Source: a plasmid
NCBI RefSeq assembly: GCF_988243305.1
Contig: NZ_OZ547138.1
Reading direction: 5' to 3' (one strand)
DNA: 64,000 nt
Part shown: positions 31,697 through 49,788 of the stretch, piece after piece
Numbering within the stretch: position 1 is the stretch's first letter
Layout of the letters: each line of letters opens with the position of its first letter
Made by a program: the position numbers and the translations under genes
Notes under the pieces: generated by a model
Databases searched by the model: none
What the model saw: only the letters and a program-made list of their open reading frames with translations
Told to the model about the DNA's origin: nothing

Positions 31697-32536
31697 CTAG
31701 GCATGATCTAACCCTCGGTCTCTGGCGTCGCGACTGCGAAATTTCGCGAGGGTTTCCGAGAAGGTGATTGCGCTTCGCAGATCTCCAGGCGCGTGGGTGC
31801 GGACGTAGTCAGCGCCATTGCCGATCGCGTGAAGTTCCGCCGCAAGGCTCGCTGGACCCAGATCCTTTACAGGAAGGCCAACGGTGGCGCCCAAGAAGGA
31901 TTTCCGCGACACCGAGACCAATAGCGGAAGCCCCAACGCCGACTTCAGCTTTTGAAGGTTCGACAGCACGTGCAGCGATGTTTCCGGTGCGGGGCTCAAG
32001 AAAAATCCCATCCCCGGATCGAGGATGAGCCGGTCGGCAGCGACCCCGCTCCGTCGCAAGGCGGAAACCCGCGCCTCGAAGAACCGCACAATCTCGTCGA
32101 GCGCGTCTTCGGGTCGAAGGTGACCGGTGCGGGTGGCGATGCCATCCCGCTGCGCTGAGTGCATAACCACCAGCCTGCAGTCCGCCTCAGCAATATCGGG
32201 ATAGAGCGCAGGGTCAGGAAATCCTTGGATATCGTTCAGGTAGCCCACGCCGCGCTTGAGCGCATAGCGCTGGGTTTCCGGTTGGAAGCTGTCGATTGAA
32301 ACACGGTGCATCTGATCGGACAGGGCGTCTAAGAGCGGCGCAATACGTCTGATCTCATCGGCCGGCGATACAGGCCTCGCGTCCGGATGGCTGGCGGCCG
32401 GTCCGACATCCACGACGTCTGATCCGACTCGCAGCATTTCGATCGCCGCGGTGACAGCGCCGGCGGGGTCTAGCCGCCGGCTCTCATCGAAGAAGGAGTC
32501 CTCGGTGAGATTCAGAATGCCGAACACCGTCACCAT
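31697..32536 (-). CDS. sul1: Sulfonamide-resistant dihydropteroate synthase Sul1
   Basis: 279 aa from [21 protein letters not shown]; overlaps the qacEdelta1 stop as in the 3'-CS. Confidence 0.97.
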
Positions 32537-32877
32537 GGCGTCGGCCTCCGCAGCGACTTCCACGATGGGGATCGGGCGAGCAAAAAGGCAGCAATTATGA
32601 GCCCCATACCTACAAAGCCCCACGCATCAAGCTTTTGCCCATGAAGCAACCAGGCAATGGCTGTAATTATGACGACGCCGAGTCCCGACCAGACTGCATA
32701 AGCAACACCGACAGGGATGGATTTCAGAACCAGAGAAAGAAAATAAAATGCGATGCCATAACCGATTATGACAACGGCGGAAGGGGCAAGCTTAGTAAAG
32801 CCCTCGCTAGATTTTAATGCGGATGTTGCGATTACTTCGCCAACTATTGCGATAACAAGAAAAAGCCAGCCTTTCAT
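32530..32877 (-). CDS. qacEdelta1: Truncated SMR efflux protein QacEdelta1
   Basis: 115 aa [27 protein letters not shown]. Confidence 0.95.
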
Positions 32878-33082
32878 GATATATCTCCCAATTTGTGTAG
32901 GGCTTATTATGCACGCTTAAAAATAATAAAAGCAGACTTGACCTGATAGTTTGGCTGTGAGCAATTATGTGCTTAGTGCATCTAACGCATAGTTGAGCGG
33001 CGGGCGCAGCCCGTCCGCTTGAACGCCGAGTTAGGCATCAGATGCCCTCGGCGCGGGTCGATGCACTTTTCGCACATGCCGC
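32878..33082 (-). other. attC: attC recombination site of the aadA5 cassette plus cassette/3'-CS boundary
   Basis: Intergenic segment between the aadA5 stop and qacEdelta1 with GTTAG/CTAAC core-like repeats; boundaries approximate. Confidence 0.45.
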
Positions 33083-33871
33083 TCAACGCAAGATTCTCTC
33101 AATCGTTGCTTTGGCATATCGAACGAACGCGGCCGTCTCTTCGACGCGCATTGCTAGGTCGTCGTCCTCGCTACCCAGGTACGCCGCGCGTGCCTTGCAG
33201 ATGAGGGGCCGATGCTCGGCAGGCAAACGCTCCGATACCCATGCGGCAGCAACGTCCTTAGGAGCAATGAGACCAGTTGAAGCGCTGTACCAAATGCGAG
33301 CAAGAGCAAGAACGACGTTCCGCTCGTCACCCTTCCAATCCGACTCTGCATTCCACTGGGCAATAGTGTCGAAAAGCGCCTTGGAGAAATGCTCCTTCGG
33401 CACCGGCTCGAAAAACGTGGCTGCGGATGGGCCTAGAAGCGCAAGGCTGTGTTGCCTCGCCTTGGTCAGCAAAATCGCAAGATCGTGATCCAGAACGGCA
33501 GGCTCGAACGTTCCGGAAAGGATGTCGTGGCGGAGCCACTCACCGAACTGAAGCTCACGCCGCGCCGGATAGCGCCAAGGCACTACTTCGCTTCGAGCGA
33601 CAACAGTTAGCTCCAGCGGTCGCCATGTTCCGCCATCGCCTGGCGGTGATGAGACTTTCAGCAAATCGAGCATTAGCGCCTGCCGGAGCGAATCGTTAGG
33701 TGCGGCGCTGACGGTCACGAGCAAGTCTATGTCGCTGTCCGGCTTCAGCCCTCCATCGATCGCAGATCCGAACAGGTGGATTGTGTCCAGTGTCGCAGCC
33801 AGATGGCGCTCGATCACCGCGCGAGCGTGGGACAGCTGCTTGAAAACTTGTGCAGGGAAAAATTCACCCAT
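33083..33871 (-). CDS. aadA5: Aminoglycoside (3'') adenylyltransferase, aadA5-type
   Basis: 262 aa MGEFFPAQVFKQLSHARAVIERHL; aadA family; sequence recalled as aadA5 (dfrA17-aadA5 array). Confidence 0.85.
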   Translation of the reverse strand: MGEFFPAQVFKQLSHARAVIERHLAATLDTIHLFGSAIDGGLKPDSDIDLLVTVSAAPNDSLRQALMLDLLKVSSPPGDGGTWRPLELTVVARSEVVPWRYPARRELQFGEWLRHDILSGTFEPAVLDHDLAILLTKARQHSLALLGPSAATFFEPVPKEHFSKALFDTIAQWNAESDWKGDERNVVLALARIWYSASTGLIAPKDVAAAWVSERLPAEHRPLICKARAAYLGSEDDDLAMRVEETAAFVRYAKATIERILR

Positions 33872-34001
33872 GATGCCTAACGTTAAGTTCAGCGGCAGCT
33901 TTTAAGTTGCGGCTTTGTGGAATACTTTTGCGCAGCAAAACCACAAAGACGCGACTTAAAAGCTGTCCAAGGAGCGAAGCGACTGGTGCTGCAACGCATT
34001 G
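33872..34001 (-). other. attC: attC site of the dfrA17 cassette
   Basis: Short intergenic segment between cassettes; boundaries approximate. Confidence 0.45.
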
Positions 34002-34475
34002 TTAGCCTTTTTTCCAAATCTGGTATGTATAATTTATATTAGACATAAAAAACTGTTCAAAAACCAAATTGAAATTCTCAGGCATTATAGGGAATTTGAT
34101 ATCACCTTCGACTTCAACGTGAACAGTAGACAAATGAATTATATCTGCTTTTTCAATAAGGCTATTATAGATTTGACCCCCGCCAGAGACATATACATGA
34201 TCTGTAACTTTTGATAGCTCTTTCAAAGCATTTTCTATTGAAGGAAAAACTAGGACGTTTTCATTTGAGCTTGAAATTCCGTTCTTTGACACTACTGCAT
34301 ATTTGCGATTTGGAAGAACACCCATAGAGTCAAATGTTTTTCTTCCGACAAGGAGCCATTGATTATATGTGAGCGCTTTAAAGAGTAGTTGCTCACCTTT
34401 TACTGACCACGGGATATCAGGACCACTACCGATTACGCCATTTTCTGACACTGCAGAAATCAATGATATTTTCAA
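34002..34475 (-). CDS. dfrA17: Trimethoprim-resistant dihydrofolate reductase, dfrA17-type
   Basis: 157 aa from [23 protein letters not shown]; first cassette next to attI1. Confidence 0.85.
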
Positions 34476-34632
34476 TTTAACTCCCTTAATGGCTAACTTT
34501 GTTTTAGGGCGACTGCCCTGCTGCGTAACATCGTTGCTGCTCCATAACATCAAACATCGACCCACGGCGTAACGCGCTTGCTGCTTGGATGCCCGAGGCA
34601 TAGACTGTACAAAAAAACAGTCATAACAAGCC
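34476..34632 (-). other. attI1: attI1 integration site region of the class 1 integron
   Basis: Region between the intI1 start and the first cassette. Confidence 0.6.
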
Positions 34633-35646
34633 ATGAAAACCGCCACTGCGCCGTTACCACCGCTGCGTTCGGTCAAGGTTCTGGACCAGTTGCGTGAGCG
34701 CATACGCTACTTGCATTACAGTTTACGAACCGAACAGGCTTATGTCCACTGGGTTCGTGCCTTCATCCGTTTCCACGGTGTGCGTCACCCGGCAACCTTG
34801 GGCAGCAGCGAAGTCGAGGCATTTCTGTCCTGGCTGGCGAACGAGCGCAAGGTTTCGGTCTCCACGCATCGTCAGGCATTGGCGGCCTTGCTGTTCTTCT
34901 ACGGCAAGGTGCTGTGCACGGATCTGCCCTGGCTTCAGGAGATCGGAAGACCTCGGCCGTCGCGGCGCTTGCCGGTGGTGCTGACCCCGGATGAAGTGGT
35001 TCGCATCCTCGGTTTTCTGGAAGGCGAGCATCGTTTGTTCGCCCAGCTTCTGTATGGAACGGGCATGCGGATCAGTGAGGGTTTGCAACTGCGGGTCAAG
35101 GATCTGGATTTCGATCACGGCACGATCATCGTGCGGGAGGGCAAGGGCTCCAAGGATCGGGCCTTGATGTTACCCGAGAGCTTGGCACCCAGCCTGCGCG
35201 AGCAGCTGTCGCGTGCACGGGCATGGTGGCTGAAGGACCAGGCCGAGGGCCGCAGCGGCGTTGCGCTTCCCGACGCCCTTGAGCGGAAGTATCCGCGCGC
35301 CGGGCATTCCTGGCCGTGGTTCTGGGTTTTTGCGCAGCACACGCATTCGACCGATCCACGGAGCGGTGTCGTGCGTCGCCATCACATGTATGACCAGACC
35401 TTTCAGCGCGCCTTCAAACGTGCCGTAGAACAAGCAGGCATCACGAAGCCCGCCACACCGCACACCCTCCGCCACTCGTTCGCGACGGCCTTGCTCCGCA
35501 GCGGTTACGACATTCGAACCGTGCAGGATCTGCTCGGCCATTCCGACGTCTCTACGACGATGATTTACACGCATGTGCTGAAAGTTGGCGGTGCCGGAGT
35601 GCGCTCACCGCTTGATGCGCTGCCGCCCCTCACTAGTGAGAGGTAG
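34633..35646 (+). CDS. intI1: Class 1 integron integrase IntI1
   Basis: 337 aa [53 protein letters not shown]. Confidence 0.97.
34720..34748 (-). promoter_or_regulatory. Pc: Cassette promoter Pc, hybrid variant (-35 TGGACA, 17-bp spacer, -10 TAAACT) inside intI1
   Basis: Read on the minus strand: TGGACA-taagcctgttcggttcg-TAAACT. Confidence 0.7.
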
Positions 35647-35823
35647 GGCAGCGCAAGTCAATCCTGGCGGATTCACTACCCCTGCGCGAAGGCCATCGGT
35701 GCCGCATCGAACGGCCGGTTGCGGAAAGTCCTCCCTGCGTCCGCTGATGGCCGGCAGCAGCCCGTCGTTGCCTGATGGATCCAACCCCTCCGCTGCTATA
35801 GTGCAGTCGGCTTCTGACGTTCA

Positions 35824-35848
35824 GTGCAGCCGTCTTCTGAAAACGACA
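35824..35848. mobile_element. IRi, 25-bp inverted repeat marking the intI1 end of the class 1 integron
   Basis: GTGCAGCCGTCTTCTGAAAACGACA is the reverse complement of TGTCGTTTTCAGAAGACGGCTGCAC. Confidence 0.8.
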
Positions 35849-36199
35849 ATGGAGGTGGTAGCCGAGGGTGTGGAAACACCCGACTGCCTTGCGTGGTTGC
35901 GGCAGGCGGGTTGCGACACGGTGCAGGGTTTCCTGTTCGCCAGGCCGATGCCGGCGGCGGCCTTCGTCGGCTTCGTCAACCAATGGAGGAACACCACCAT
36001 GAACGCCAATGAACCGAGCACCAGTTGCTGCGTGTGCTGCAAGGAAATCCCGCTCGATGCCGCCTTCACGCCGGAAGGGGCCGAGTACGTGGAGCATTTC
36101 TGCGGGCTGGAGTGCTATCAGCGCTTCCAGGCGCGGGCCAGCACTGCGACCGAAACCAGCGTCAAACCGGACGCTTGTGATTCGCCGCCGTCAGGTTGA
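35849..36199 (+). CDS. tnpM: TnpM (urf2M-derived putative transposition modulator of Tn21)
   Basis: 116-aa ORF starting immediately after IRi ([28 protein letters not shown]), the Tn21 signature of integron insertion. Confidence 0.7.
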
Positions 36200-36374
36200 G
36201 GCATACCCTAACTTGATGTCAGGCAGGGCCGCGCCGCTTCGTCAGAATAGAGTCTGCTTTCCCATTTTTTGACACATGCCCGCGAAGGTTATAGATTTCA
36301 GCCTGACAGAAATGGGCTTTGAGGCACAACGGAACAGAAAGTGCACTTAAGCCGCCTTCAACCAAGGAGACATC
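36200..36374. other. res: res (resolution) site region of the Tn21-family transposon
   Basis: Intergenic region between tnpM and tnpR; assigned by position. Confidence 0.5.
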
Positions 36375-36935
36375 GTGCAGGGGCACCGCATCGGCTACGT
36401 CCGGGTCAGCAGCTTTGACCAGAACCCGGAACGCCAGCTGGAACAAACCCAGGTGAGCAAGGTGTTCACCGACAAGGCATCGGGCAAGGACACCCAGCGC
36501 CCCCAGCTCGAAGCGCTGCTGAGCTTCGTCCGCGAAGGCGATACAGTGGTGGTGCACAGCATGGATCGGCTGGCCCGCAACCTCGATGACCTGCGTCGCT
36601 TGGTACAGAAGCTGACTCAGCGCGGCGTGCGCATCGAGTTCCTGAAGGAGGGCCTGGTGTTCACTGGCGAGGACTCGCCGATGGCCAACCTGATGCTGTC
36701 GGTGATGGGGGCCTTCGCTGAGTTCGAGCGCGCCCTGATCCGCGAGCGGCAGCGTGAGGGCATCGCCTTGGCCAAGCAGCGTGGCGCGTACCGGGGCCGC
36801 AAGAAAGCCCTGTCCGATGAGCAGGCTGCTACCCTGCGGCAGCGAGCGACGGCCGGCGAGCCCAAGGCGCAGCTTGCCCGCGAGTTCAACATCAGCCGGG
36901 AAACCCTCTACCAGTACCTCCGCACGGACGACTGA
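36375..36935 (+). CDS. tnpR: Serine resolvase TnpR (Tn21 subgroup)
   Basis: 186 aa MQGHRIGYVRVSSFDQNPERQLE with catalytic serine and C-terminal HTH. Confidence 0.9.
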   Translation: MQGHRIGYVRVSSFDQNPERQLEQTQVSKVFTDKASGKDTQRPQLEALLSFVREGDTVVVHSMDRLARNLDDLRRLVQKLTQRGVRIEFLKEGLVFTGEDSPMANLMLSVMGAFAEFERALIRERQREGIALAKQRGAYRGRKKALSDEQAATLRQRATAGEPKAQLAREFNISRETLYQYLRTDD

Positions 36936-36938
36936 CAC

Positions 36939-39869
36939 ATGCCGCGTCGCTTGATCCTCTCGGCCACGGAGCGGGACACCCTGCTTGCGCTGCCGGAAAG
37001 CCAGGATGACCTGATCCGCTACTACACCTTCAACGACTCCGACCTGTCGCTGATCCGCCAGCGACGCGGCGACGCCAACCGCCTCGGCTTCGCCGTGCAG
37101 CTCTGCCTGCTGCGCTACCCCGGTTACGCGCTGGGAACCGACAGCGAGCTGCCCGAGCCGGTCATCCTGTGGGTGGCGAAGCAAGTCCAGGCCGAGCCGG
37201 CGAGCTGGGCAAAGTACGGCGAGCGCGACGTGACCCGTCGCGAGCATGCCCAGGAACTGCGCACCTACCTGCAACTGGCCCCGTTCGGCCTGTCCGACTT
37301 CCGCGCCCTGGTGCGCGAGCTAACCGAGCTGGCCCAGCAGACCGACAAAGGCTTGCTGCTGGCCGGTCAGGCCCTGGAGAGCCTACGGCAGAAACGACGC
37401 ATCCTGCCGGCGCTGAGCGTGATTGACCGGGCCTGCTCGGAAGCCATTGCGCGAGCCAATCGGCGGGTCTACCGCGCCCTGGTCGAACCACTCACGGACT
37501 CGCATCGGGCCAAGCTGGACGAGCTGTTGAAGCTCAAGGCCGGCAGCAGCATCACCTGGTTGACCTGGCTGCGCCAGGCACCGCTGAAACCCAACTCTCG
37601 GCACATGCTGGAACACATCGAGCGGCTGAAGACATTTCAGTTGGTGGACTTGCCCGAAGGCCTGGGCCGGCACATCCACCAGAACCGCCTGCTCAAGCTG
37701 GCCCGCGAGGGTGGGCAGATGACGCCCAAAGACCTCGGTAAGTTCGAGCCGCAGCGCCGCTACGCGACCCTGGCCGCCGTGGTGCTGGAGAGCACCGCGA
37801 CCGTGATCGATGAGCTGGTCGATCTGCATGACCGCATCCTGGTCAAGCTGTTCAGCGGCGCGAAGCACAAGCATCAGCAGCAGTTCCAGAAGCAGGGCAA
37901 GGCGATCAACGACAAGGTGCGCCTGTACTCCAGGATCGGCCAGGCGCTGCTGGAAGCGAAGGAAAGCGGCAGCGACCCCTATGCCGCCATCGAGGCGGTG
38001 ATTCCCTGGGACGAGTTCACCGAGAGCGTCAGCGAGGCCGAGCTGCTGGCCCGGCCGGAAGGCTTCGACCACCTGCACCTGGTCGGCGAGAACTTCGCCA
38101 CCCTGCGCCGTTACACGCCGGCCGCGCAAGGCGTGCTGGCAGCCGTGCAGACCCTGCGTGAGATGAACGCCGACAACCTGCGCAAGGTGCCGGCCGATGC
38201 ACCCACGGCCTTCATCAAGCCGCGCTGGAAGCCGCTGGTGATCACCCCGGAAGGCCTCGACCGGAAATTCTACGAAATCTGCGCCCTGTCCGAGCTGAAG
38301 AACGCCCTGCGCTCCGGCGACATCTGGGTCAAGGGCTCGCGGCAGTTCCGCGACTTCGACGACTACCTGCTGCCGGCCGAGAAGTTCGCCGCACTCAAGC
38401 GCGAGCAGGCCCTGCCCCTGGCGATCAACCCGAACAGCGACCAGTACCTGGAAGAGCGTTTGCAGCTGCTGGACGAGCAGTTGGCCACCGTCACCCGCCT
38501 GGCCAAGGACAACGAGCTGCCCGATGCCATCCTCACCGAGTCAGGGCTGAAAATCACCCCGCTGGATGCGGCGGTGCCGGATCGGGCGCAGGCGCTGATC
38601 GACCAAACCAGCCAGTTACTGCCGCGCATCAAGATCACCGAACTGCTGATGGACGTGGACGACTGGACGGGCTTCAGCCGCCACTTCACCCACTTGAAGG
38701 ACGGGGCCGAGGCCAAAGACAGGACGTTGCTGCTGTCCGCAATCCTCGGTGATGCGATCAACCTCGGGCTGACCAAGATGGCCGAGTCGAGCCCCGGCCT
38801 GACCTACGCCAAGCTGTCCTGGCTGCAAGCCTGGCACATCCGCGACGAAACCTATTCGGCGGCCTTGGCCGAGCTGGTCAACCACCAGTATCGCCACGCC
38901 TTTGCCGCCCACTGGGGCGACGGCACGACCTCATCCTCCGATGGCCAGCGCTTCCGCGCGGGTGGCCGGGGCGAGAGCACCGGGCACGTCAACCCGAAGT
39001 ACGGTAGCGAGCCGGGACGGCTGTTCTATACCCATATCTCCGACCAGTACGCGCCGTTCAGCACCCGCGTGGTGAATGTCGGCGTCCGCGATTCCACCTA
39101 TGTGCTCGACGGCCTGCTGTACCACGAGTCCGACCTGCGGATCGAGGAGCACTACACCGACACGGCCGGCTTCACCGATCACGTCTTTGCCCTGATGCAC
39201 CTGCTAGGCTTCCGCTTCGCGCCGCGCATCCGCGACCTCGGCGAAACCAAGCTGTACGTGCCGCAGGGCGTGCAAGCCTACCCGACGTTGCGCCCGCTGA
39301 TCGGCGGCACCCTGAACATCAAGCACGTGCGTGCCCACTGGGACGACATCCTGCGCCTGGCCAGCTCGATCAAGCAGGGCACCGTCACCGCCTCGCTGAT
39401 GCTGCGCAAGCTCGGCAGCTACCCGCGCCAGAACGGACTGGCCGTGGCCCTGCGCGAGCTGGGCCGGATCGAGCGCACGCTGTTCATCCTGGACTGGCTG
39501 CAAAGTGTTGAACTGCGCCGCCGCGTGCATGCCGGCCTGAACAAAGGTGAGGCGCGCAACTCGCTGGCCAGGGCGGTGTTCTTCAACCGCCTTGGGGAAA
39601 TCAGGGATCGGAGCTTCGAGCAGCAGCGCTACCGGGCCAGCGGCCTCAACCTGGTGACGGCGGCTATCGTGCTGTGGAACACGGTGTACCTGGAACGCGC
39701 CACCCAGGGGTTGGTCGAGGCCGGCAAGCCGGTGGACGGCGAGCTGCTGCAATTCCTGTCGCCGCTGGGCTGGGAGCACATCAACCTAACCGGCGATTAC
39801 GTCTGGCGGCAGAGCCGCAGACTGGAAGACGGGAAGTTTCGGCCCTTACGGATGCCCGGAAAACCTTAG
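36939..39869 (+). CDS. tnpA: Tn3-family transposase TnpA (Tn21 subgroup; 3' end in a Tn1721-type IR)
   Basis: 976-aa [34 protein letters not shown]; the stop lies inside the 38-bp terminal repeat. Confidence 0.9.
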
Positions 39870-39902
39870 CGTACGATTTTTTCCGAATTCTGCGGGCTCC
39901 CC
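39865..39902. mobile_element. 38-bp Tn3-family terminal inverted repeat, Tn1721-type
   Basis: CTTAGCGTACGATTTTTTCCGAATTCTGCGGGCTCCCC, reverse complement of GGGGAGCCCGCAGAATTCGGAAAAAATCGTACGCTAAG. Confidence 0.8.
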
Positions 39903-40200
39903 TATCTCATCTGCGCAAGGCAGAACGTGAAGACGGCCGCCCTGGACCTCGCCCGCGAGCGCCAGGCGCACGAGGCCGGCGCGCGGACCCGCGCCACGGC
40001 CCACGAGCGGACGCCGCAGCAGGAGCGCCAGAAGGCCGCCAGAGAGGCCGAGCGCGGCCGTGAGGCTTGGACGCTAGGGCAGGGCATGAAAAAGCCCGTA
40101 GCGGGCTGCTACGGGCGTCTGACGCGGTGGAAAGGGGGAGGGGATGTTGTCTACATGGCTCTGCTGTAGTGAGTGGGTTGCGCTCCGGCAGCGGTCCTGA

Positions 40201-40851
40201 TCAATCGTCACCCTTTCTCGGTCCTTCAACGTTCCTGACAACGAGCCTCCTTTTCGCCAATCCATCGACAATCACCGCGAGTCCCTGCTCGAACGCTGCG
40301 TCCGGACCGGCTTCGTCGAAGGCGTCTATCGCGGCCCGCAACAGCGGCGAGAGCGGAGCCTGTTCAACGGTGCCGCCGCGCTCGCCGGCATCGCTGTCGC
40401 CGGCCTGCTCCTCAAGCACGGCCCCAACAGTGAAGTAGCTGATTGTCATCAGCGCATTGACGGCGTCCCCGGCCGAAAAACCCGCCTCGCAGAGGAAGCG
40501 AAGCTGCGCGTCGGCCGTTTCCATCTGCGGTGCGCCCGGTCGCGTGCCGGCATGGATGCGCGCGCCATCGCGGTAGGCGAGCAGCGCCTGCCTGAAGCTG
40601 CGGGCATTCCCGATCAGAAATGAGCGCCAGTCGTCGTCGGCTCTCGGCACCGAATGCGTATGATTCTCCGCCAGCATGGCTTCGGCCAGTGCGTCGAGCA
40701 GCGCCCGCTTGTTCCTGAAGTGCCAGTAAAGCGCCGGCTGCTGAACCCCCAACCGTTCCGCCAGTTTGCGTGTCGTCAGACCGTCTACGCCGACCTCGTT
40801 CAACAGGTCCAGGGCGGCACGGATCACTGTATTCGGCTGCAACTTTGTCAT
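40201..40851 (-). CDS. tetR(A): Tetracycline repressor TetR(A)
   Basis: 216 aa from MTKLQPNTVIRAALDLLNEVGVDGLTTRKLAERLGVQQPALYWHF. Confidence 0.95.
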   Translation of the reverse strand: MTKLQPNTVIRAALDLLNEVGVDGLTTRKLAERLGVQQPALYWHFRNKRALLDALAEAMLAENHTHSVPRADDDWRSFLIGNARSFRQALLAYRDGARIHAGTRPGAPQMETADAQLRFLCEAGFSAGDAVNALMTISYFTVGAVLEEQAGDSDAGERGGTVEQAPLSPLLRAAIDAFDEAGPDAAFEQGLAVIVDGLAKRRLVVRNVEGPRKGDD

Positions 40852-40956
40852 GCTTGACACTTTATCACTGATAAACATAATATGTCCACCAACTTATCAG
40901 TGATAAAGAATCCGCGCGTTCAATCGGACCAGCGGAGGCTGGTCCGGAGGCCAGAC

Positions 40957-42156
40957 GTGAAACCCAACAGACCCCTGATCGTAATTCTGAGCACTGTCGC
41001 GCTCGACGCTGTCGGCATCGGCCTGATTATGCCGGTGCTGCCGGGCCTCCTGCGCGATCTGGTTCACTCGAACGACGTCACCGCCCACTATGGCATTCTG
41101 CTGGCGCTGTATGCGTTGATGCAATTTGCCTGCGCACCTGTGCTGGGCGCGCTGTCGGATCGTTTCGGGCGGCGGCCGGTCTTGCTCGTCTCGCTGGCCG
41201 GCGCTGCTGTCGACTACGCCATCATGGCGACGGCGCCTTTCCTTTGGGTTCTCTATATCGGGCGGATCGTGGCCGGCATCACCGGGGCGACTGGGGCGGT
41301 AGCCGGCGCTTATATTGCCGATATCACTGATGGCGATGAGCGCGCGCGGCACTTCGGCTTCATGAGCGCCTGTTTCGGGTTCGGGATGGTCGCGGGACCT
41401 GTGCTCGGTGGGCTGATGGGCGGTTTCTCCCCCCACGCTCCGTTCTTCGCCGCGGCAGCCTTGAACGGCCTCAATTTCCTGACGGGCTGTTTCCTTTTGC
41501 CGGAGTCGCACAAAGGCGAACGCCGGCCGTTACGCCGGGAGGCTCTCAACCCGCTCGCTTCGTTCCGGTGGGCCCGGGGCATGACCGTCGTCGCCGCCCT
41601 GATGGCGGTCTTCTTCATCATGCAACTTGTCGGACAGGTGCCGGCCGCGCTTTGGGTCATTTTCGGCGAGGATCGCTTTCACTGGGACGCGACCACGATC
41701 GGCATTTCGCTTGCCGCATTTGGCATTCTGCATTCACTCGCCCAGGCAATGATCACCGGCCCTGTAGCCGCCCGGCTCGGCGAAAGGCGGGCACTCATGC
41801 TCGGAATGATTGCCGACGGCACAGGCTACATCCTGCTTGCCTTCGCGACACGGGGATGGATGGCGTTCCCGATCATGGTCCTGCTTGCTTCGGGTGGCAT
41901 CGGAATGCCGGCGCTGCAAGCAATGTTGTCCAGGCAGGTGGATGAGGAACGTCAGGGGCAGCTGCAAGGCTCACTGGCGGCGCTCACCAGCCTGACCTCG
42001 ATCGTCGGACCCCTCCTCTTCACGGCGATCTATGCGGCTTCTATAACAACGTGGAACGGGTGGGCATGGATTGCAGGCGCTGCCCTCTACTTGCTCTGCC
42101 TGCCGGCGCTGCGTCGCGGGCTTTGGAGCGGCGCAGGGCAACGAGCCGATCGCTGA
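40957..42156 (+). CDS. tet(A): Tetracycline efflux MFS transporter Tet(A)
   Basis: 399 aa from GTG (VKPNRPLIVILSTVALDAVGIGLIMPVLPGLLRDL); divergent from tetR(A). Confidence 0.95.
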   Translation: MKPNRPLIVILSTVALDAVGIGLIMPVLPGLLRDLVHSNDVTAHYGILLALYALMQFACAPVLGALSDRFGRRPVLLVSLAGAAVDYAIMATAPFLWVLYIGRIVAGITGATGAVAGAYIADITDGDERARHFGFMSACFGFGMVAGPVLGGLMGGFSPHAPFFAAAALNGLNFLTGCFLLPESHKGERRPLRREALNPLASFRWARGMTVVAALMAVFFIMQLVGQVPAALWVIFGEDRFHWDATTIGISLAAFGILHSLAQAMITGPVAARLGERRALMLGMIADGTGYILLAFATRGWMAFPIMVLLASGGIGMPALQAMLSRQVDEERQGQLQGSLAALTSLTSIVGPLLFTAIYAASITTWNGWAWIAGAALYLLCLPALRRGLWSGAGQRADR

Positions 42157-42187
42157 TCGTGGAAACGATAGGCCTATGCCATGCGGG

Positions 42188-43072
42188 TCAAGGCGACTTC
42201 CGGCAAGCTATACGCGCCCTAGGAGTGCGGTTGGAACGTTGGCCCAGCCAGATACTCCCGATCACGAGCAGGACGCCGATGATTTGAAGCGCACTCAGCG
42301 TCTGATCCAAGAACAACCATCCTAGCAACACGGCGGTCCCCGGGCTGAGAAAGCCCAGTAAGGAAACAACTGTAGGTTCGAGTCGCGAGATCCCCCGGAA
42401 CCAAAGGAAGTAGGTTAAACCCGCTCCGATCAGGCCGAGCCACGCCAGGCCGAGAACATTGGTTCCTGTAGGCATCGGGATTGGCGGATCAAACACTAAA
42501 GCTACTGGAACGAGCAGAAGTCCTCCGGCCGCCAGTTGCCAGGCGGTAAAGGTGAGCAGAGGCACGGGAGGTTGCCACTTGCGGGTCAGCACGGTTCCGA
42601 ACGCCATGGAAACCGCCCCCGCCAGGCCCGCTGCGACGCCGACAGGATCTAGCGCTGCGTTTGGTGTCAACACCAACAGCGCCACGCCCGCAGTTCCGCA
42701 AATAGCCCCCAGGACCGCCATCAATCGTATCGGGCTACCTAGCAGAGCGGCAGAGATGAACACGACCATCAGCGGCTGCACAGCGCCTACCGTCGCCGCG
42801 ACCCCGCCCGGCAGGCGGTAGACCGAAATAAACAACAAGCTCCAGAATAGCGAAATATTAAGTGCGCCGAGGATGAAGATGCGCATCCACCAGATTCCCG
42901 TTGGAATCTGTCGGACGATCATCACGAGCAATAAACCCGCCGGCAACGCCCGCAGCATCGCGACCGTCATCGGTGAGAAGTTCGGCAGGTATTGGGTGGT
43001 GACAATGTAGGTGCTGCCCCAAATGGCAGGTGCTATCGCTGTGAACAATAAATCGGGCGTGCGTAATGACAT
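42188..43072 (-). CDS. pecM: EamA-family membrane protein PecM (Tn1721 tet module)
   Basis: 294-aa polytopic membrane protein convergent with tet(A). Confidence 0.8.
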   Translation of the reverse strand: MSLRTPDLLFTAIAPAIWGSTYIVTTQYLPNFSPMTVAMLRALPAGLLLVMIVRQIPTGIWWMRIFILGALNISLFWSLLFISVYRLPGGVAATVGAVQPLMVVFISAALLGSPIRLMAVLGAICGTAGVALLVLTPNAALDPVGVAAGLAGAVSMAFGTVLTRKWQPPVPLLTFTAWQLAAGGLLLVPVALVFDPPIPMPTGTNVLGLAWLGLIGAGLTYFLWFRGISRLEPTVVSLLGFLSPGTAVLLGWLFLDQTLSALQIIGVLLVIGSIWLGQRSNRTPRARIACRKSP

Positions 43073-43463
43073 GCGATTACAAGACCTCCGCTACGGCGAT
43101 GGGTTTTTGAGAGTTGCAGGCGCCGCGATGACCGCACCCTGACTTGGACTGGCCCTGCCTCGCACCAATCCACCTGCGGCTATGGCCGCGATCATGCGAG
43201 GCCCGAAAATTACACGACCTGTACACGTCCGCCGAACCCGGAACGCAACAGAGCTTCGTGGGCATCCCGATCCGGGTCGTAGCAGCAGTCCTGGACCAAA
43301 CGCACGTCGTAGTCCGCATCACTAGCCCAGGCGACGCTTGAAAGAACAACGCCGGTGGTGCTTATCCCGGCCATGACAAGCGTGCTTACGCCGCGCGTCC
43401 GAAGGTCGGCGTCGAGCGCCGTGCCATAAAAGACGCTGGCTCGCGGACATGCATAGAAAAGGT

Positions 43464-44283
43464 GGCACTGTTGCAAAGTTAGCGATGAGGCAGCCTTTTG
43501 TCTTATTCAAAGGCCTTACATTTCAAAAACTCTGCTTACCAGGCGCATTTCGCCCAGGGGATCACCATAATAAAATGCTGAGGCCTGGCCTTTGCGTAGT
43601 GCACGCATCACCTCAATACCTTTGATGGTGGCGTAAGCCGTCTTCATGGATTTAAATCCCAGCGTGGCGCCGATTATCCGTTTCAGTTTGCCATGATCGC
43701 ATTCAATCACGTTGTTCCGGTACTTAATCTGTCGGTGTTCAACGTCAGACGGGCACCGGCCTTCGCGTTTGAGCAGAGCAAGCGCGCGACCATAGGCGGG
43801 CGCTTTATCCGTGTTGATGAATCGCGGGATCTGCCACTTCTTCACGTTGTTGAGGATTTTACCCAGAAACCGGTATGCAGCTTTGCTGTTACGACGGGAG
43901 GAGAGATAAAAATCGACAGTGCGGCCCCGGCTGTCGACGGCCCGGTACAGATACGCCCAGCGGCCATTGACCTTCACGTAGGTTTCATCCATGTGCCACG
44001 GGCAAAGATCGGAAGGGTTACGCCAGTACCAGCGCAGCCGTTTTTCCATTTCAGGCGCATAACGCTGAACCCAGCGGTAAATCGTGGAGTGATCGACATT
44101 CACTCCGCGTTCAGCCAGCATCTCCTGCAGCTCACGGTAACTGATGCCGTATTTGCAGTACCAGCGTACGGCCCACAGAATGATGTCACGCTGAAAATGC
44201 CGGCCTTTGAATGGGTTCATGTGCAGCTCCATCAGCAAAAGGGGATGATAAGTTTATCACCACCGACTATTTGCAACAGTGCC
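43464..44283 (-). mobile_element. IS26: IS26 (820 bp) copy 2, inverted relative to copy 1
   Basis: Terminal repeats GGCACTGTTGCAAA (43464) and TTTGCAACAGTGCC (44283); no target duplication. Confidence 0.95.
43516..44220 (-). CDS. tnpA: IS26 transposase Tnp26
   Basis: Protein identical to the copy at 24655-25359. Confidence 0.95.
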   Translation of the reverse strand: MNPFKGRHFQRDIILWAVRWYCKYGISYRELQEMLAERGVNVDHSTIYRWVQRYAPEMEKRLRWYWRNPSDLCPWHMDETYVKVNGRWAYLYRAVDSRGRTVDFYLSSRRNSKAAYRFLGKILNNVKKWQIPRFINTDKAPAYGRALALLKREGRCPSDVEHRQIKYRNNVIECDHGKLKRIIGATLGFKSMKTAYATIKGIEVMRALRKGQASAFYYGDPLGEMRLVSRVFEM

Positions 44284-45151
44284 AGCTGAAACAGGCGCCA
44301 TAGTAGGTCGCATAGGTGATGCATCAAATCGGCTTAGCGAACACACCCGAGGCCTACTAAAGGATATTGAGTCAAGCAATGTACTTACAGTTGAGCAGCA
44401 GGCAGAGACAGATCAAATAGCAACGGCAGTAAACCAAATGGTGGCAAGCATTCAAGAGGTTGCGAGCAATGCACAGCATGCTGCAGATGCGGCCGGAAGA
44501 GCAGACACTGAGACGGCATCTGGCCAGCGTCTGGTAGCCCACACAAGCCAGTCAATCACTGCCCTTGAAGGTGAAATTAGGCAAGCCACTCAGGTTATTC
44601 ATGAGCTTGAAGGTCAAAGTAACGAGATATCAAAAGTTCTTGACGTTATACGAGGGATCGCCGAGCAAACGAATTTGTTGGCACTCAACGCAGCAATTGA
44701 GGCCGCGCGTGCTGGTGAGCAGGGGCGTGGTTTTGCTGTTGTCGCCGATGAGGTTCGCAGTCTTGCTGCTCGCACACAGCAATCGACAACGGATATTCAA
44801 AGCATGATCAGCGCTCTACAAGAGCGAGCGCAATCCGCTGTTACAGTCATGGAGCAAAGTAGTCGGCAAGCGCACACGAGTGTAGCTCACGCAGAGGAAG
44901 CAGCTACAGCTCTTGATGGAATTGGCCAACGCGTTAACGAAATTACCGACATGAACGCGCAAATAGCGACTGCGGTCGAGCAGCAGGGAGCAGTAAGTGA
45001 AGACATAAACCGCAGTATTATCAATATACGCGATGCTGCTGATACCAATGTACAGACCGGGCAGAATAATTTGCAAAGTGCGAAATCTGTCGCTCAGTTA
45101 ACTAGCGCTCTGAGCGAACTGGCAAAACAGTTTTGGGAAAAACGAGGATAA
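44284..45151 (+). pseudogene. C-terminal fragment of a methyl-accepting chemotaxis-like protein (Tn1721 mcp/orfI-like), N-terminus removed by IS26
   Basis: MCP signalling-domain sequence ([33 protein letters not shown]); frame begins at the IS26 boundary. Confidence 0.6.
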
Positions 45152-45302
45152 CGCTTTTCAGTATCTCGACAGGGATAACTTACTTTACCATCGGTTATCC
45201 CTTTTAGCCGCACAAATTTTAGCCATGGCTTTTCAGGAAGTCAGGGCTATCAGAATGGCCTTAGAAAGCCTAGTCAAAGAGCTGTCACGAGAACACCGTT
45301 AG

Positions 45303-45340
45303 CTTAGCGTACGATTTTTTCCGAATTCTGCGGTTCCCCC
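45303..45340. mobile_element. 38-bp Tn3-family terminal inverted repeat, Tn1721-type, second copy
   Basis: CTTAGCGTACGATTTTTTCCGAATTCTGCGGTTCCCCC; same orientation as the copy at 39865. Confidence 0.75.
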
Positions 45341-45516
45341 TAGAAAGCTTCTTTAAATCATTAAAGGCTGAGTTGATTTGGCGCAGACACTGGCAAACAA
45401 GGCGAGATATTGAGATTGCAATCTTCGAATATATAAATGGCTTTTATAATCCACGCCGAAGACATTCAACACTCGGCTGGAAATCGCCGGTGGCATTTGA
45501 GAAAAAAGCCGCTTAA
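45341..45516 (+). pseudogene. 3' fragment of an IS3-family transposase gene (integrase-core C-terminus; IS1133-like remnant as in Tn5393)
   Basis: Translation ...IFEYINGFYNPRRRHSTLGWKSPVAFEKKAA* is a typical IS3-family OrfB C-terminus; abuts the Tn1721 IR. Confidence 0.5.
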
Positions 45517-45622
45517 AATGAGAGATAGACCGGAACACAACCGGTGCAAGTCCATAGCAACTCGTTTCTTTTCGCAGGTTGAGCCACCTCCGCGCTTCAT
45601 CAGAAAACTGAAGGAACCTCCA

Positions 45623-46426
45623 TTGAATCGAACTAATATTTTTTTTGGTGAATCGCATTCTGACTGGTTGCCTGTCAGAGGCGGAGAATCTGGTGATTTT
45701 GTTTTTCGACGTGGTGACGGGCATGCCTTCGCGAAAATCGCACCTGCTTCCCGCCGCGGTGAGCTCGCTGGAGAGCGTGACCGCCTCATTTGGCTCAAAG
45801 GTCGAGGTGTGGCTTGCCCCGAGGTGATCAACTGGCAGGAGGAACAGGAGGGTGCATGCTTGGTGATAACGGCAATTCCGGGAGTACCGGCGGCTGATCT
45901 GTCTGGAGCGGATTTGCTCAAAGCGTGGCCGTCAATGGGGCAGCAACTTGGCGCTGTTCACAGCCTATCGGTTGATCAATGTCCGTTTGAGCGCAGGCTG
46001 TCGCGAATGTTCGGACGCGCCGTTGATGTGGTGTCCCGCAATGCCGTCAATCCCGACTTCTTACCGGACGAGGACAAGAGTACGCCGCAGCTCGATCTTT
46101 TGGCTCGTGTCGAACGAGAGCTACCGGTGCGGCTCGACCAAGAGCGCACCGATATGGTTGTTTGCCATGGTGATCTCTGCATGCCGAACTTCATGGTGGA
46201 CCCTAAAACTCTTCAATGCACGGGTCTGATCGACCTTGGGCGGCTCGGAACAGCAGATCGCTATGCCGATTTGGCACTCATGATTGCTAACGCCGAAGAG
46301 AACTGGGCAGCGCCAGATGAAGCAGAGCGCGCCTTCGCTGTCCTATTCAATGTATTGGGGATCGAAGCCCCCGACCGCGAACGCCTTGCCTTCTATCTGC
46401 GATTGGACCCTCTGACTTGGGGTTGA
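45623..46426 (+). CDS. strA: Streptomycin phosphotransferase APH(3'')-Ib
   Basis: 267 aa from TTG (MNRTNIFFGESHSDWLPVRGGESGDFVFRRGDG). Confidence 0.9.
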   Translation: MNRTNIFFGESHSDWLPVRGGESGDFVFRRGDGHAFAKIAPASRRGELAGERDRLIWLKGRGVACPEVINWQEEQEGACLVITAIPGVPAADLSGADLLKAWPSMGQQLGAVHSLSVDQCPFERRLSRMFGRAVDVVSRNAVNPDFLPDEDKSTPQLDLLARVERELPVRLDQERTDMVVCHGDLCMPNFMVDPKTLQCTGLIDLGRLGTADRYADLALMIANAEENWAAPDEAERAFAVLFNVLGIEAPDRERLAFYLRLDPLTWG

Positions 46427-47262
46427 TGTTCATGCCGCCTGTTTTTCCTGCTCATTGGCACGTTTCGCAACCTGTTCTCATTGCGGACACCTTTTCCAGC
46501 CTCGTTTGGAAAGTTTCATTGCCAGACGGGACTCCTGCAATCGTCAAGGGATTGAAACCTATAGAAGACATTGCTGATGAACTGCGCGGGGCCGACTATC
46601 TGGTATGGCGCAATGGGAGGGGAGCAGTCCGGTTGCTCGGTCGTGAGAACAATCTGATGTTGCTCGAATATGCCGGGGAGCGAATGCTCTCTCACATCGT
46701 TGCCGAGCACGGCGACTACCAGGCGACCGAAATTGCAGCGGAACTAATGGCGAAGCTGTATGCCGCATCTGAGGAACCCCTGCCTTCTGCCCTTCTCCCG
46801 ATCCGGGATCGCTTTGCAGCTTTGTTTCAGCGGGCGCGCGATGATCAAAACGCAGGTTGTCAAACTGACTACGTCCACGCGGCGATTATAGCCGATCAAA
46901 TGATGAGCAATGCCTCGGAACTGCGTGGGCTACATGGCGATCTGCATCATGAAAACATCATGTTCTCCAGTCGCGGCTGGCTGGTGATAGATCCCGTCGG
47001 TCTGGTCGGTGAAGTGGGCTTTGGCGCCGCCAATATGTTCTACGATCCGGCTGACAGAGACGACCTTTGTCTCGATCCTAGACGCATTGCACAGATGGCG
47101 GACGCATTCTCTCGTGCGCTGGACGTCGATCCGCGTCGCCTGCTCGACCAGGCGTACGCTTATGGGTGCCTTTCCGCAGCTTGGAACGCGGATGGAGAAG
47201 AGGAGCAACGCGATCTAGCTATCGCGGCCGCGATCAAGCAGGTGCGACAGACGTCATACTAG
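46426..47262 (+). CDS. strB: Streptomycin phosphotransferase APH(6)-Id
   Basis: 278 aa from MFMPPVFPAHWHVSQPVLIADTFSSLVWKV; overlaps the strA stop. Confidence 0.9.
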   Translation: MFMPPVFPAHWHVSQPVLIADTFSSLVWKVSLPDGTPAIVKGLKPIEDIADELRGADYLVWRNGRGAVRLLGRENNLMLLEYAGERMLSHIVAEHGDYQATEIAAELMAKLYAASEEPLPSALLPIRDRFAALFQRARDDQNAGCQTDYVHAAIIADQMMSNASELRGLHGDLHHENIMFSSRGWLVIDPVGLVGEVGFGAANMFYDPADRDDLCLDPRRIAQMADAFSRALDVDPRRLLDQAYAYGCLSAAWNADGEEEQRDLAIAAAIKQVRQTSY

Positions 47263-47330
47263 ATATCAAGCGACTTCTCCTATCCCCTGGGAACACATCA
47301 ATCTTACCGGAGAATATCGTTGGCCAAAGC

Positions 47331-47368
47331 CTTAGCGTAGGATTTCGCCCTCTCCCGCAAACGACCCC
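47331..47368. mobile_element. Tn5393-type 38-bp terminal inverted repeat downstream of strB
   Basis: CTTAGCGTAGGATTTCGCCCTCTCCCGCAAACGACCCC, a Tn3-family GGGG...CTAAG repeat. Confidence 0.7.
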
Positions 47369-47381
47369 AGGAGGAAAGGGC

Positions 47382-47606
47382 ATGAAGAAGCCGAACCAAG
47401 ACGACGAGCCGTTTTTCATCACCGAGGAGATTGCGGCCGAAATGATCGCCGGCGGCTATGAGTTCGAGCTGCCGCCCATTCCTTGCACCATCCGCCTACG
47501 CGACGTGCTGGAGCGCATGACCGATGCTGAGCTAGCATTGCAGCCGGGCGAGATCGCCGACCAGGAGCGTGAACGCTGCCGGCGCAAGCCGTGTTCAACC
47601 TCATGA
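47382..47606 (+). CDS. Small hypothetical ORF just outside the Tn5393 IR
   Basis: AGGAGG RBS 6 nt upstream of ATG; 74 aa; function unknown. Confidence 0.3.
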   Translation: MKKPNQDDEPFFITEEIAAEMIAGGYEFELPPIPCTIRLRDVLERMTDAELALQPGEIADQERERCRRKPCSTS

Positions 47607-47705
47607 TCTGGTCATGGTATTTTTCATGGCACTGAGCCTGATAGTTCTTGCAAATTGTTGTCACTAAAGGGTTTTGTGTGCTTGTTTACAATCGAGTGGG
47701 AGTGA
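47606..47705. repeat. ISCR2-associated end-like sequence, copy M (motifs CATGGTATTTTTCATGG and CTTGTTTACAATCGAGTGGGA)
   Basis: Shares two motifs at identical 51-nt spacing with 50893-50995. Confidence 0.4.
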
Positions 47706-47816
47706 CGGGCACTGGCTGGCAATGTCTAGCAACGGCAGGCATTTCGGCTGAGGGTAAAAGAACTTTCCGCTAAGCGATAGACTGTATGTAAACACAGTAT
47801 TGCAAGGACGCGGAAC

Positions 47817-49310
47817 ATGCCTCATGTGGCGGCCAGGACGGCCAGCCGGGATCGGGATACTGGTCGTTACCAGAGCCACCGACCCGAGCAAACCCTTCTC
47901 TATCAGATCGTTGACGAGTATTACCCGGCATTCGCTGCGCTTATGGCAGAGCAGGGAAAGGAATTGCCGGGCTATGTGCAACGGGAATTTGAAGAATTTC
48001 TCCAATGCGGGCGGCTGGAGCATGGCTTTCTACGGGTTCGCTGCGAGTCTTGCCACGCCGAGCACCTGGTCGCTTTCAGCTGTAAGCGTCGCGGTTTCTG
48101 CCCGAGCTGTGGGGCGCGGCGGATGGCCGAAAGTGCCGCCTTGCTGGTTGATGAAGTACTGCCTGAACAACCCATGCGTCAGTGGGTGTTGAGCTTCCCG
48201 TTTCAGCTGCGTTTCCTGTTTGCCAGCCGGCCCGAGATCATGGGGTGGGTGCTGGGCATCGTTTACCGCGTCATTGCCACGCACCTGGTCAAGAAAGCGG
48301 GCCATACCCACCAAGTGGCCAAGACGGGCGCGGTCACCCTGATCCAGCGTTTTGGATCGGCGCTCAATCTGAATGTTCACTTCCACATGCTGTTTCTCGA
48401 CGGTGTGTATGTCGAGCAATCCCACGGCTCAGCGCGTTTCCGCTGGGTCAAGGCGCCGACCAGCCCAGAGCTCACCCAGCTGACGCACACCATCGCCCAC
48501 CGGGTGGGTCGCTATCTGGAACGGCAAGGCCTGCTGGAACGGGATGTCGAAAACAGCTATCTGGCCTCGGATGCGGTGGATGACGACCCGATGACACCCC
48601 TGCTGGGGCACTCGATCACTTACCGTATCGCTGTCGGTTCACAGGCGGGGCGAAAGGTGTTCACTTTGCAAACTCTGCCGACCAGTGGTGATCCGTTCGG
48701 TGACGGGATTGGCAAGGTAGCCGGGTCCAGCCTGCACGCCGGCGTGGCGGCCAGGGCCGATGAACGCAAGAAGCTCGAACGGCTGTGCCGGTACATCAGC
48801 CGCCCGGCGGTATCCGAGAAGCGGCTGTCGTTAACACGAGGCGGCAACGTGCGCTACCAGCTCAAGACGCCGTACCGGGACGGCACCACGCACGTCATTT
48901 TCGAACCATTGGATTTCATTGCAAGGCTGGCCGCCCTGGTACCGAAGCCCAGAGTCAACCTAACCCGCTTCCACGGGGTGTTCGCACCCAACAGTCGGCA
49001 CCGGGCGTTGGTCACGCCGGCAAAACGGGGCAGGGGCAACAAGGTCAGGGTGGCTGATGAACCGGCAACACCAGCACAACGGCGAGCGTCGATGACATGG
49101 GCGCAACGGCTCAAGCGTGTTTTCAATATCGACATCGAGACCTGCAGCGGCTGCGGCGGCGCCATGAAAGTCATCGCCTGCATTGAAGACCCTATAGTGA
49201 TCAAGCAGATCCTTGATCACCTGAAGCACAAAGCCGAAACCAGCGGGACCAGGGCGTTACCCGAAAGCCGGGCGCCACCGGCTGAGCTGCTCCTGGGTCT
49301 GTTTGACTGA
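47817..49310 (+). CDS. rcr2: ISCR2 rolling-circle (IS91-family) transposase
   Basis: 497 aa with Cys-rich zinc-binding N-terminus (CESCHAEHLVAFSCKRRGFCPSCGARRM) and HUH-type core; classic sul2 neighbour. Confidence 0.9.
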   Translation: MPHVAARTASRDRDTGRYQSHRPEQTLLYQIVDEYYPAFAALMAEQGKELPGYVQREFEEFLQCGRLEHGFLRVRCESCHAEHLVAFSCKRRGFCPSCGARRMAESAALLVDEVLPEQPMRQWVLSFPFQLRFLFASRPEIMGWVLGIVYRVIATHLVKKAGHTHQVAKTGAVTLIQRFGSALNLNVHFHMLFLDGVYVEQSHGSARFRWVKAPTSPELTQLTHTIAHRVGRYLERQGLLERDVENSYLASDAVDDDPMTPLLGHSITYRIAVGSQAGRKVFTLQTLPTSGDPFGDGIGKVAGSSLHAGVAARADERKKLERLCRYISRPAVSEKRLSLTRGGNVRYQLKTPYRDGTTHVIFEPLDFIARLAALVPKPRVNLTRFHGVFAPNSRHRALVTPAKRGRGNKVRVADEPATPAQRRASMTWAQRLKRVFNIDIETCSGCGGAMKVIACIEDPIVIKQILDHLKHKAETSGTRALPESRAPPAELLLGLFD

Positions 49311-49485
49311 CGAGCCTGAAGGCCAACGATACCAATCAAAATGCTGCGTTCACAGCGCCGCGGCAGGGATCCGCCGTGCTGGTTGTCGGAAAAGGAGCCG
49401 CTAGTGGGAAAGAGGAGGGTAAATTTTCAGCGTTGCTGGCTCCCCGTCAGCCGGATTGGGTTGCATCGCAGGGGTGTCGAAAGAG

Positions 49486-49788
49486 TCAACTGCGGTCCAA
49501 AGCTGTTGGACTTGGGTGAAAAGGGCGTTTATTCTTCCTATACGTTGTCGGCAGCGGGCCAAAAAGGAATACGTCCATGCCCATCGAGGTGAAACCGGCT
49601 GTGAGCGCGGGTTCAAGCATATAGCCCGACAGGCGCGTATCCTTGCCGATCACGACACGATGGCGGTGGTCACCGCGACGAAAGACACGGCCAGCCGCCA
49701 TGCCGACGCGCAAGGCGGTTTCCGCCGTCATCGCGCCTTCGTTGGCTTTGCCACGAATACCGTCTGTGCCGAAATATTTGCGCACCAT
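49486..49788 (-). pseudogene. glmM: Truncated phosphoglucosamine mutase gene (glmM remnant)
   Basis: N-terminus [18 protein letters not shown] of GlmM followed by out-of-context sequence; lies between ISCR2 and sul2. Confidence 0.7.

Follow-up and report, generated by a model that had tools for sequence, protein, structure and literature searches.

The subject of this report is a 64,000-nt stretch of plasmid contig NZ_OZ547138.1 (assembly GCF_988243305.1), hereafter the window, to which all plain coordinates refer; within it, tnpM, tnpR and tnpA stand beside a tet module, two copies of IS26 and two 38-bp inverted repeats (IRs) of Tn1721. This region is a decayed derivative of a known hybrid Tn1721/Tn21 transposon that was later rearranged by IS26. 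The first-pass annotation of the window had rightly recognised a Tn21/Tn1721 chimera: the sequence is that of Tn21 up to 36202 and that of Tn1721 from 36213. It had placed the recombination in tnpA or in the terminal repeat, and this placement fails, since tnpR, tnpA and the IR match Tn1721 end to end and the switch lies upstream of tnpR. The identity of the parts and their join at the resolution (res) site can be stated with high confidence, and it is likely, from the position of the breakpoint, that the exchange was catalysed at res site I by the resolvase TnpR.

For comparison, the R100 (NR1) copy served as the Tn21 reference and the pRK100 copy as the Tn1721 reference. pFBAOT6, pRK100 and p2009_36_F were all taken as Tn1721 references, Tn1721 being interrupted or truncated in each of them, and the canonical right end of Tn1721 was taken from pLR-51_1, which carries the same hybrid with its right end intact. 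Junctions were counted in 72,556 plasmids, and the hybrid res junction also in 5,426 complete E. coli genomes; in the plasmid count of this res junction, a 250-bp sequence had to be matched with a coverage of at least 80%.

The Tn21 share of the hybrid is limited to IRi, tnpM and the left half of res site I, all 99.9–100% identical to R100. The IRi of the class 1 integron (35824–35848, minus strand, GTGCAGCCGTCTTCTGAAAACGACA, read directly from the sequence) occupies the In2 position of Tn21 and has the In2-type flank ATGGA. The tnpM open reading frame (ORF) of Tn21 (35849–36199, plus strand, 116 aa) begins at the base right after IRi, as in Tn21, an arrangement that the first-pass annotation had read correctly. 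Its product is the C-terminal EAL-domain remnant of urf2M, including the tail annotated as DUF3330, and it gives EAL-domain matches. Over 35000–36222 the identity to R100 Tn21 is 99.9%, and the tnpM stretch is 100% identical as far as 36212, tnpM being the last complete Tn21 feature of the hybrid. The intI1 gene of the dfrA17-aadA5 class 1 integron (34633–35646, plus strand, after the annotation of the identical plasmid NZ_CP145695.1) has 99.7% identity to R100 Tn21/In2. An 87-codon ORF at 36009–36272 was considered as a possible junction-spanning gene and rejected as an Arg/Pro-rich spurious frame; the frame of DUF3330/tnpM is a different one, and it closes at 36199, ahead of the crossover.

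Beyond the crossover, everything as far as the second IS26 belongs to Tn1721. The stretch 36199–43472 was assigned to Tn1721, and a base-by-base list shows that 36203–43463 differs from the pRK100 copy only by a 36-bp deletion after 38115 and a single-nucleotide polymorphism at 38500; at the latter, five other copies agree with the window, so that the variant base is peculiar to pRK100. To Tn21, tnpR-tnpA has only 75% nucleotide identity. The tnpR of Tn1721 (36375–36935, plus strand) encodes a resolvase of 186 aa, WP_001161490.1, which is also present in pRK100, p2009_36_F and pAPEC-O2-R; it is identical to the pRK100 Tn1721 TnpR at 186 of 186 residues, and 81.2% identical to the TnpR of Tn21. 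The tnpA of Tn1721 (36939–39869, plus strand) carries the 36-bp deletion in frame, so that the full-length transposase of 988 aa is replaced by one of 976 aa. Of the 976 aligned residues, 975 are the same as in the pRK100 copy (99.9%), the sole difference again being specific to pRK100, whereas the identity to Tn21 TnpA is 73.7%. The protein matches the NCBIfam model of Tn3-family transposases with 1254 bits and aligns over its full length to the Tn4430 TnpA structures 7QD4 and 7QD8. In RefSeq naming, the TnpA of the window, of pRK100 and of pAPEC-O2-R is of the 'TnAs1 family', and that of R100 Tn21 of the 'TnAs3 family'. That is to say, of the "Tn21-type tnpM-tnpR-tnpA" reported in the first-pass annotation, tnpM holds (100% Tn21), while tnpR and tnpA belong to Tn1721; neither the tnpR, the tnpA nor the IRtnp of Tn21 is present.

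The switch between the two parents lies in a very short interval. In a three-way alignment the last Tn21-specific bases are 36201–36202 and the first Tn1721-specific base is 36213, which confines the crossover to the shared 10-bp stretch ATACCCTAAC (36203–36212), 3 bp past the tnpM stop codon and 163 bp ahead of tnpR. By our own reading of the sequence, both parents have an imperfect 12+2+12 dyad here, TCAGGTTGAGGC AT ACCCTAACCTGA in Tn21 and TCAATCTAGGCT AT ACCCTAACTTGA in Tn1721. The site in the window (36191–36216) would be a hybrid res site I, with its left arm TCAGGTTGAGGC from Tn21, its central AT at 36203–36204 and its right arm ACCCTAACTTGA from Tn1721, and the crossover interval opens exactly at the central AT. 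The remainder of the Tn1721 res (36217–36374), comprising sites II and III, the tnpR promoter and the leader, is identical to Tn1721 and clearly unlike Tn21.

A conservative reciprocal exchange at this point predicts an opposite product, and therefore a synthetic 250-bp junction was built from the two references, with the left arm of Tn1721 and the right arm of Tn21. It was found with 100% identity over its full length in 239 plasmids of the plasmid collection. In one of them, pC59-153 (8579–8828 of the compared sequence), the context is Tn21 tnpA - tnpR - hybrid res - Tn1721 mcp - IRL, so this reciprocal hybrid has the same crossover interval in res site I as the window and the opposite parental halves. 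The breakpoint thus stands at the centre of the site, and both reciprocal products exist.

The junction of the window is itself widespread, occurring in 857 of the 72,556 plasmids, pAPEC-O2-R (NC_006671) among them, and in 314 of the 5,426 complete E. coli genomes. The context in pAPEC-O2-R is the same, namely intI1 - tnpM - tnpR - tnpA - tetR - tet(A). Tn7714 has been described as a combination of the mer, intI1 and tnpM of Tn21 with the tnpR, tnpA and tet(A) of Tn1721, with two IRR copies 5,488 bp apart, and its transposition between plasmids was observed (PMC11332342); the configuration was already termed previously described in a bioRxiv preprint (10.1101/2022.09.12.507718). The structure in the window is therefore not new but a described Tn21/Tn1721 hybrid. 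In common with Tn7714, with pTZ41_1P_HI2 (PMC7355605) and with pAPEC-O2-R, it has the integron, IRi and tnpM of Tn21 joined through a hybrid Tn21/Tn1721 res site, identical over 250 bp, to the tnpR, tnpA, IRRI, tetR(A), tet(A) and pecM of Tn1721. Unlike these relatives, it is without the mer module and IRmer of Tn21, without the tnpA duplicate and without IRRII, and it carries the 36-bp tnpA deletion and an inverted mcp fragment with IRL behind IS26. Compared with Tn1721/Tn1722 (Allmeier et al. 1992; copies in pRK100 and p2009_36_F), 36203–43463 and 44284–45340 are 99.9–100% identical, while Tn21 sequence stands in place of the 5′ part of mcp and of the left arm of res site I, the end with IRL is turned round and there is no right end. 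With Tn21 (R100/NR1) the window shares intI1, IRi, tnpM and the left arm of res site I at 99.9–100%, the integron being at the In2 position; it differs in that tnpR, tnpA and the IR are not those of Tn21 (75% at the nucleotide level), and in having neither a mer operon nor the terminal IR pair of Tn21.

The IR that overlaps the tnpA stop codon (39867–39869) is IRRI of Tn1721 (39865–39902, minus strand, GGGGAGCCCGCAGAATTCGGAAAAAATCGTACGCTAAG). It is identical to the IRRI of Tn1721 in pRK100, as is the following sequence TATCTCATCT, and differs from the Tn21 IRs at 10–11 positions. It is directly followed by the Tn1721 tet module (39903–43463), which consists of tetR(A) (40201–40851, minus strand), tet(A) (40957–42156, plus strand) and pecM/EamA (42188–43072, minus strand) and then 391 bp; there is no difference from Tn1721 in pRK100 or pLR-51_1, and the module breaks off at 43463, where another 142 bp would normally lead to the tnpA duplicate. 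A small ORF (39927–40169) in the interval from IRRI to tetR(A) is annotated as 'transposase' (WP_000844627.1) in every Tn1721 copy examined. Next comes the second copy of IS26 (43464–44283, minus strand), and then the 3′ part of the Tn1721 mcp gene (orfI) with the lead-up to IRL (44284–45302, plus strand, coding to 45151), which gives matches to methyl-accepting chemotaxis proteins and is 99.9% identical to Tn1721 of pRK100 in reverse orientation. The IRL of Tn1721 (45303–45340, minus strand, GGGGGAACCGCAGAATTCGGAAAAAATCGTACGCTAAG) is identical to the mcp-side IR of pRK100, has 3 mismatches to IRRI, and starts 5,438 bp after the start of IRRI in the same orientation. In Tn1721, mcp is transcribed towards IRL, so that the mcp fragment and IRL of the window are inverted relative to tnpR-tnpA. 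Four claims of the first-pass annotation are thereby borne out against the reference sequences, namely the Tn1721 type of the repeat at the tnpA stop, the tetR(A), tet(A) and pecM genes directly after it, the second IS26 with an mcp fragment (44284–45151), and the second Tn1721-type IR in the same orientation.

IRL abuts a 176-bp 3′ remnant of IS1133 of Tn5393 (45341–45516, plus strand) at 45340/45341, with the flank TAGAA. From inside IS1133 onward the sequence is 99.95% identical to Tn5393 in pSE81-1706 and runs through strA-strB to the IR of Tn5393 itself at about 47288–47369; the other half of IS1133 and the tnp genes of Tn5393 are absent from the window. The IRL|IS1133 junction is present in 3 plasmid records, all of this lineage.

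The first copy of IS26 (24592–25411, plus strand) lies next to mph(A), and its flanks are AGGTCGAA and GGATTGAA; the flanks of the second are GAAAAGGT and AGCTGAAA, with no 8-bp duplication. The two copies are identical at 820 of 820 positions and opposite in orientation, unlike the two direct copies of a pseudo-compound transposon. The junction on the right side of the second copy (IS26|mcp) was found in 121 plasmids of many genera with various neighbours, and for the pecM-side|IS26 junction the two records of this plasmid are the only ones with a contiguous match. Two relatives show what the arrangement may have been before. In an IncC relative, chrA - padR - IS6100 - mphR - mrx - mph(A) - IS26 - mcp fragment - IRL are contiguous, and pJNQH497-2 has IRRI - tnpA - tnpR - hybrid res - tnpM - intI1 - dfrA17 - aadA5 fragment - IS26 - mcp fragment - IRL, which is colinear with canonical Tn1721. 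Flipping 25412–43463 between the inverted IS26 copies of the window restores exactly such a colinear arrangement. Moreover, the Salmonella Enteritidis plasmid pJNQH940-1 (NZ_CP136142.1) is identical over 24000–38782 and 43464–52000 and has lost 38783–43463, that is, the 3′ part of tnpA, IRRI, tetR(A), tet(A) and pecM, by adjacent deletion from the second IS26 copy. This shows directly that IS26 deletion is ongoing in the lineage, and with the inverted copies bracketing the segment it upholds the IS26-mediated rearrangement proposed in the first-pass annotation.

From these data a history in four steps can be proposed. In the first step, whose product is visible in the sequence, a conservative exchange at the centre of res site I, most likely catalysed by the serine resolvase TnpR, would have joined the accessory side of Tn21 (the integron at the In2 position, IRi, tnpM and the left arm of res site I) to the Tn1721 side (the right arm of res site I, res II/III, tnpR, tnpA, IRRI and the tet module); this hybrid junction is old and inherited, and was not made in this plasmid. 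The second step, deduced from the relatives, would be an ancestor colinear with Tn1721 and seated inside IS1133 of Tn5393, reading IRL - mcp fragment - IS26 - mph(A)...chrA...sul1 - aadA5 - dfrA17 - intI1 on the left and tnpM - hybrid res - tnpR - tnpA - IRRI - tet - (tnpA duplicate - IRRII) on the right. In the third step the 18-kb segment 25412–43463 may have been inverted relative to the mcp fragment and IRL, between inverse IS26 copies, by intramolecular replicative transposition or by recombination between them; the tnpA duplicate, IRRII and what else there was of Tn5393 would have been lost through IS26-adjacent deletions, after which IRRI and IRL stood in direct repeat at a distance of 5,438 bp. 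In the fourth, a deletion of 36 bp, apparently by slippage between CGCCGGCC repeats, shortened tnpA.

As for the third step, an inversion within a single element is moderately probable, and several results weigh against it. The four flanks of the IS26 copies are unrelated whichever way they are read, and no 8-bp IS26 target duplication, direct or reverse-complement, was found at either copy, so no target-site duplication stands behind a single-step IS26 inversion. The window has an inverse IS26 pair bracketing a segment, as in the model of IS26 inversion and adjacent deletion (He et al. 2015, cited in PMC13367494; PMC4326458), but not the reverse-complement 8-bp signature which that model expects, which makes it necessary to assume either more than one IS26 event or homologous recombination of one copy with the other. 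In addition, the 5-bp duplications of the Tn3 family were not found around the colinear element of pJNQH497-2 (CTTAT vs TTTAA), and no single contiguous record was found to hold the fully colinear ancestor. The same absence of the 8-bp signature would suit another origin of the mcp fragment and IRL, from a second, independent Tn1721/Tn1722 in IS1133 that was joined to the hybrid through IS26 recombination with no inversion; the IS26|mcp junction is indeed a widely shared module with various neighbours (the 121 plasmids above), and the pecM-side junction is private to this plasmid. Against such a second element stand the relatives that carry IS26 - mcp fragment - IRL colinearly beside mph(A) or the In54/hybrid res unit, and one inversion between the inverted IS26 copies accounts for the window without it, so that the two-element origin is rather unlikely, though a serious competitor.

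As for the first step, RecA-dependent homologous recombination within the few shared bases could in principle have produced the same join. Some authors ascribe such chimeras to homologous recombination (PMC4326458, PMC3817090), reciprocal products are expected of both enzymes, and within a crossover interval of 10 bp the sequence by itself gives neither the exact cleavage position nor a distinction between TnpR and RecA; furthermore, the placement of res site I depends on our dyad reading and on a secondary description (PMC13367494). These points tell against a firm attribution to the resolvase. Nevertheless, only 10 bp are identical at the switch, far below efficient RecA substrates, and the dyad centre of res site I, which is the point of cleavage by serine resolvases (PMC13367494), is exactly where the interval opens. 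RecA is far less likely because tnpR and tnpA offer far longer stretches of greater similarity, which the exchange passed over, and we regard it as an improbable author of the junction; the exchange is attributed to the resolvase because the breakpoint starts at the central AT.

A transposase gene or terminal IR that is itself recombinant, by homologous recombination within tnpA, has a precedent in AbaR0, whose true hybrid tnpA combines 1,418 bp of Tn1721 with 401 bp of Tn21 (PMC4899885), and the two tnpA genes are 81% identical in parts. The tnpA of the window is not such a hybrid: the alignment against Tn21 and Tn1721 which the first-pass annotation had proposed was carried out, no mosaic was found inside tnpR-tnpA when every difference from Tn1721 was listed, TnpR is 100% Tn1721, and 36203–43463 matches one reference throughout without any Tn21-type patch, the very outcome that this annotation had named as speaking against it, which leaves the recombinant tnpA or end practically no probability.

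Equally negligible is the idea that the second IR is IRRII of an ordinary Tn1721 in which an IS26 insertion is the only departure from the canonical layout: the orientation agrees and 5,438 bp comes near the canonical 5,488 bp, but IRRII carries the IRRI sequence after a 1.8-kb tnpA duplicate, as seen in pLR-51_1, whereas the second IR of the window is the IRL variant GGGGGAACC, preceded by mcp and with no tnpA duplicate. In pLR-51_1, IRRI (at 13777) and IRRII (at 19265) are direct repeats of identical sequence 5,488 bp apart, and IRRII comes after 1,787 bp that duplicate the end of tnpA; a pair of directly repeated IRs with a spacing of about 5.5 kb is thus what Tn1721 normally has (pLR-51_1; Tn7714, PMC11332342). 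The likeness of the two spacings is a coincidence, since the second repeat has the IRL variant sequence, mcp lies upstream of it, and the tet module ends 142 bp before the duplicate would begin.

The deletion in tnpA has left a scar at 38116–38123, where a single copy of the 8-bp direct repeat CGCCGGCC survives. The loss of 36 bp between two such copies looks typical of a slippage-type deletion and takes out TnpA residues 395–406 (PALLEVLELRAA). The counterpart of these residues is kept in Tn21 TnpA (PEFLAVLKLRAA), and in the alignment with Tn4430 TnpA a 12-residue stretch stands opposite the gap. The deletion junction occurs in 3 of the 72,556 plasmids, all of one lineage, namely two E. coli records and the Salmonella plasmid pJNQH940-1. 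It seems very doubtful that the 976-aa TnpA, without residues 395–406, would still be active and would drive one-ended transposition or replicon fusion from IRRI, or act in trans on the IRs of the Tn21 subgroup.

Judged by its sequence, the present structure appears immobile as a Tn3-family unit. The Tn3-family machinery would be vestigial because there is no inverted IR pair in the window, the outer parental ends are missing and the transposase is altered. As a Tn1721 the element is incomplete: IRL and IRRI are direct repeats, neither IRRII nor the tnpA duplicate is there, and mcp is truncated and inverted; nor does it have the intact end of a Tn7714-like element, that is, an IRmer or an IRL inverted to IRRI/IRRII, and no match to the mer operon or IRmer of R100 Tn21 was found anywhere in the window. 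The Tn21-subgroup IR pattern gave 3 matches in the window, all in the same orientation, against 0 in 100 shuffles; the third is a Tn21-family 38-bp IR remnant (31355–31392, minus strand, GGGATCGCCTCAGAAAACGGAAAATAAAGCACGCTAAG) beside chrA-padR, between sul1/orf5 and chrA. Elsewhere in the window there are no further Tn21-subgroup IRs, and no pieces of Tn1721, Tn21 or Tn5393, that could pair with IRRI or IRL. In the IncC relative, IS4321 is inserted exactly at the IR corresponding to 31355–31392 (about 964–2291 of the compared sequence).

The surroundings form one multiresistance region. From the left, it comprises in order the first IS26 copy, mph(A)-mrx-mphR, IS6100, padR-chrA and the Tn21-family IR, then sul1-qacEdelta1-aadA5-dfrA17 and intI1, then the hybrid transposon region, and after it strA-strB, ISCR2 (annotated ISVsa3) and sul2. 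ISCR2 (47817–49310) and then sul2 (49875–50690) follow the terminal IR of Tn5393 past strB, and the segment 47367–50995 also occurs in pLR-51_1. The stretch 33000–46500 is 100% identical to p1-S1-KEN-03-A (NZ_CP145695.1), a 126-kb IncI-gamma/K1 plasmid of E. coli. tet(A), the integron and the mph(A) genes are intact resistance determinants, and they now spread through IS26 activity and plasmid conjugation.

The significance of these results beyond annotation and epidemiology is slight. With the correct reading of this very common junction of resistance plasmids, annotators need not call a recombinant transposase, and the database itself demonstrates that both reciprocal products of the Tn21 × Tn1721 exchange at res site I are in circulation. 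Three markers are private to the lineage, namely the 36-bp tnpA deletion, the IRL|IS1133 junction and the pecM-side|IS26 junction, and in E. coli and Salmonella they could serve as tags for following this IncI-gamma/K plasmid lineage. Were the 976-aa TnpA active after all, the allele of this lineage would be a natural separation-of-function variant of a Tn3-family transposase.

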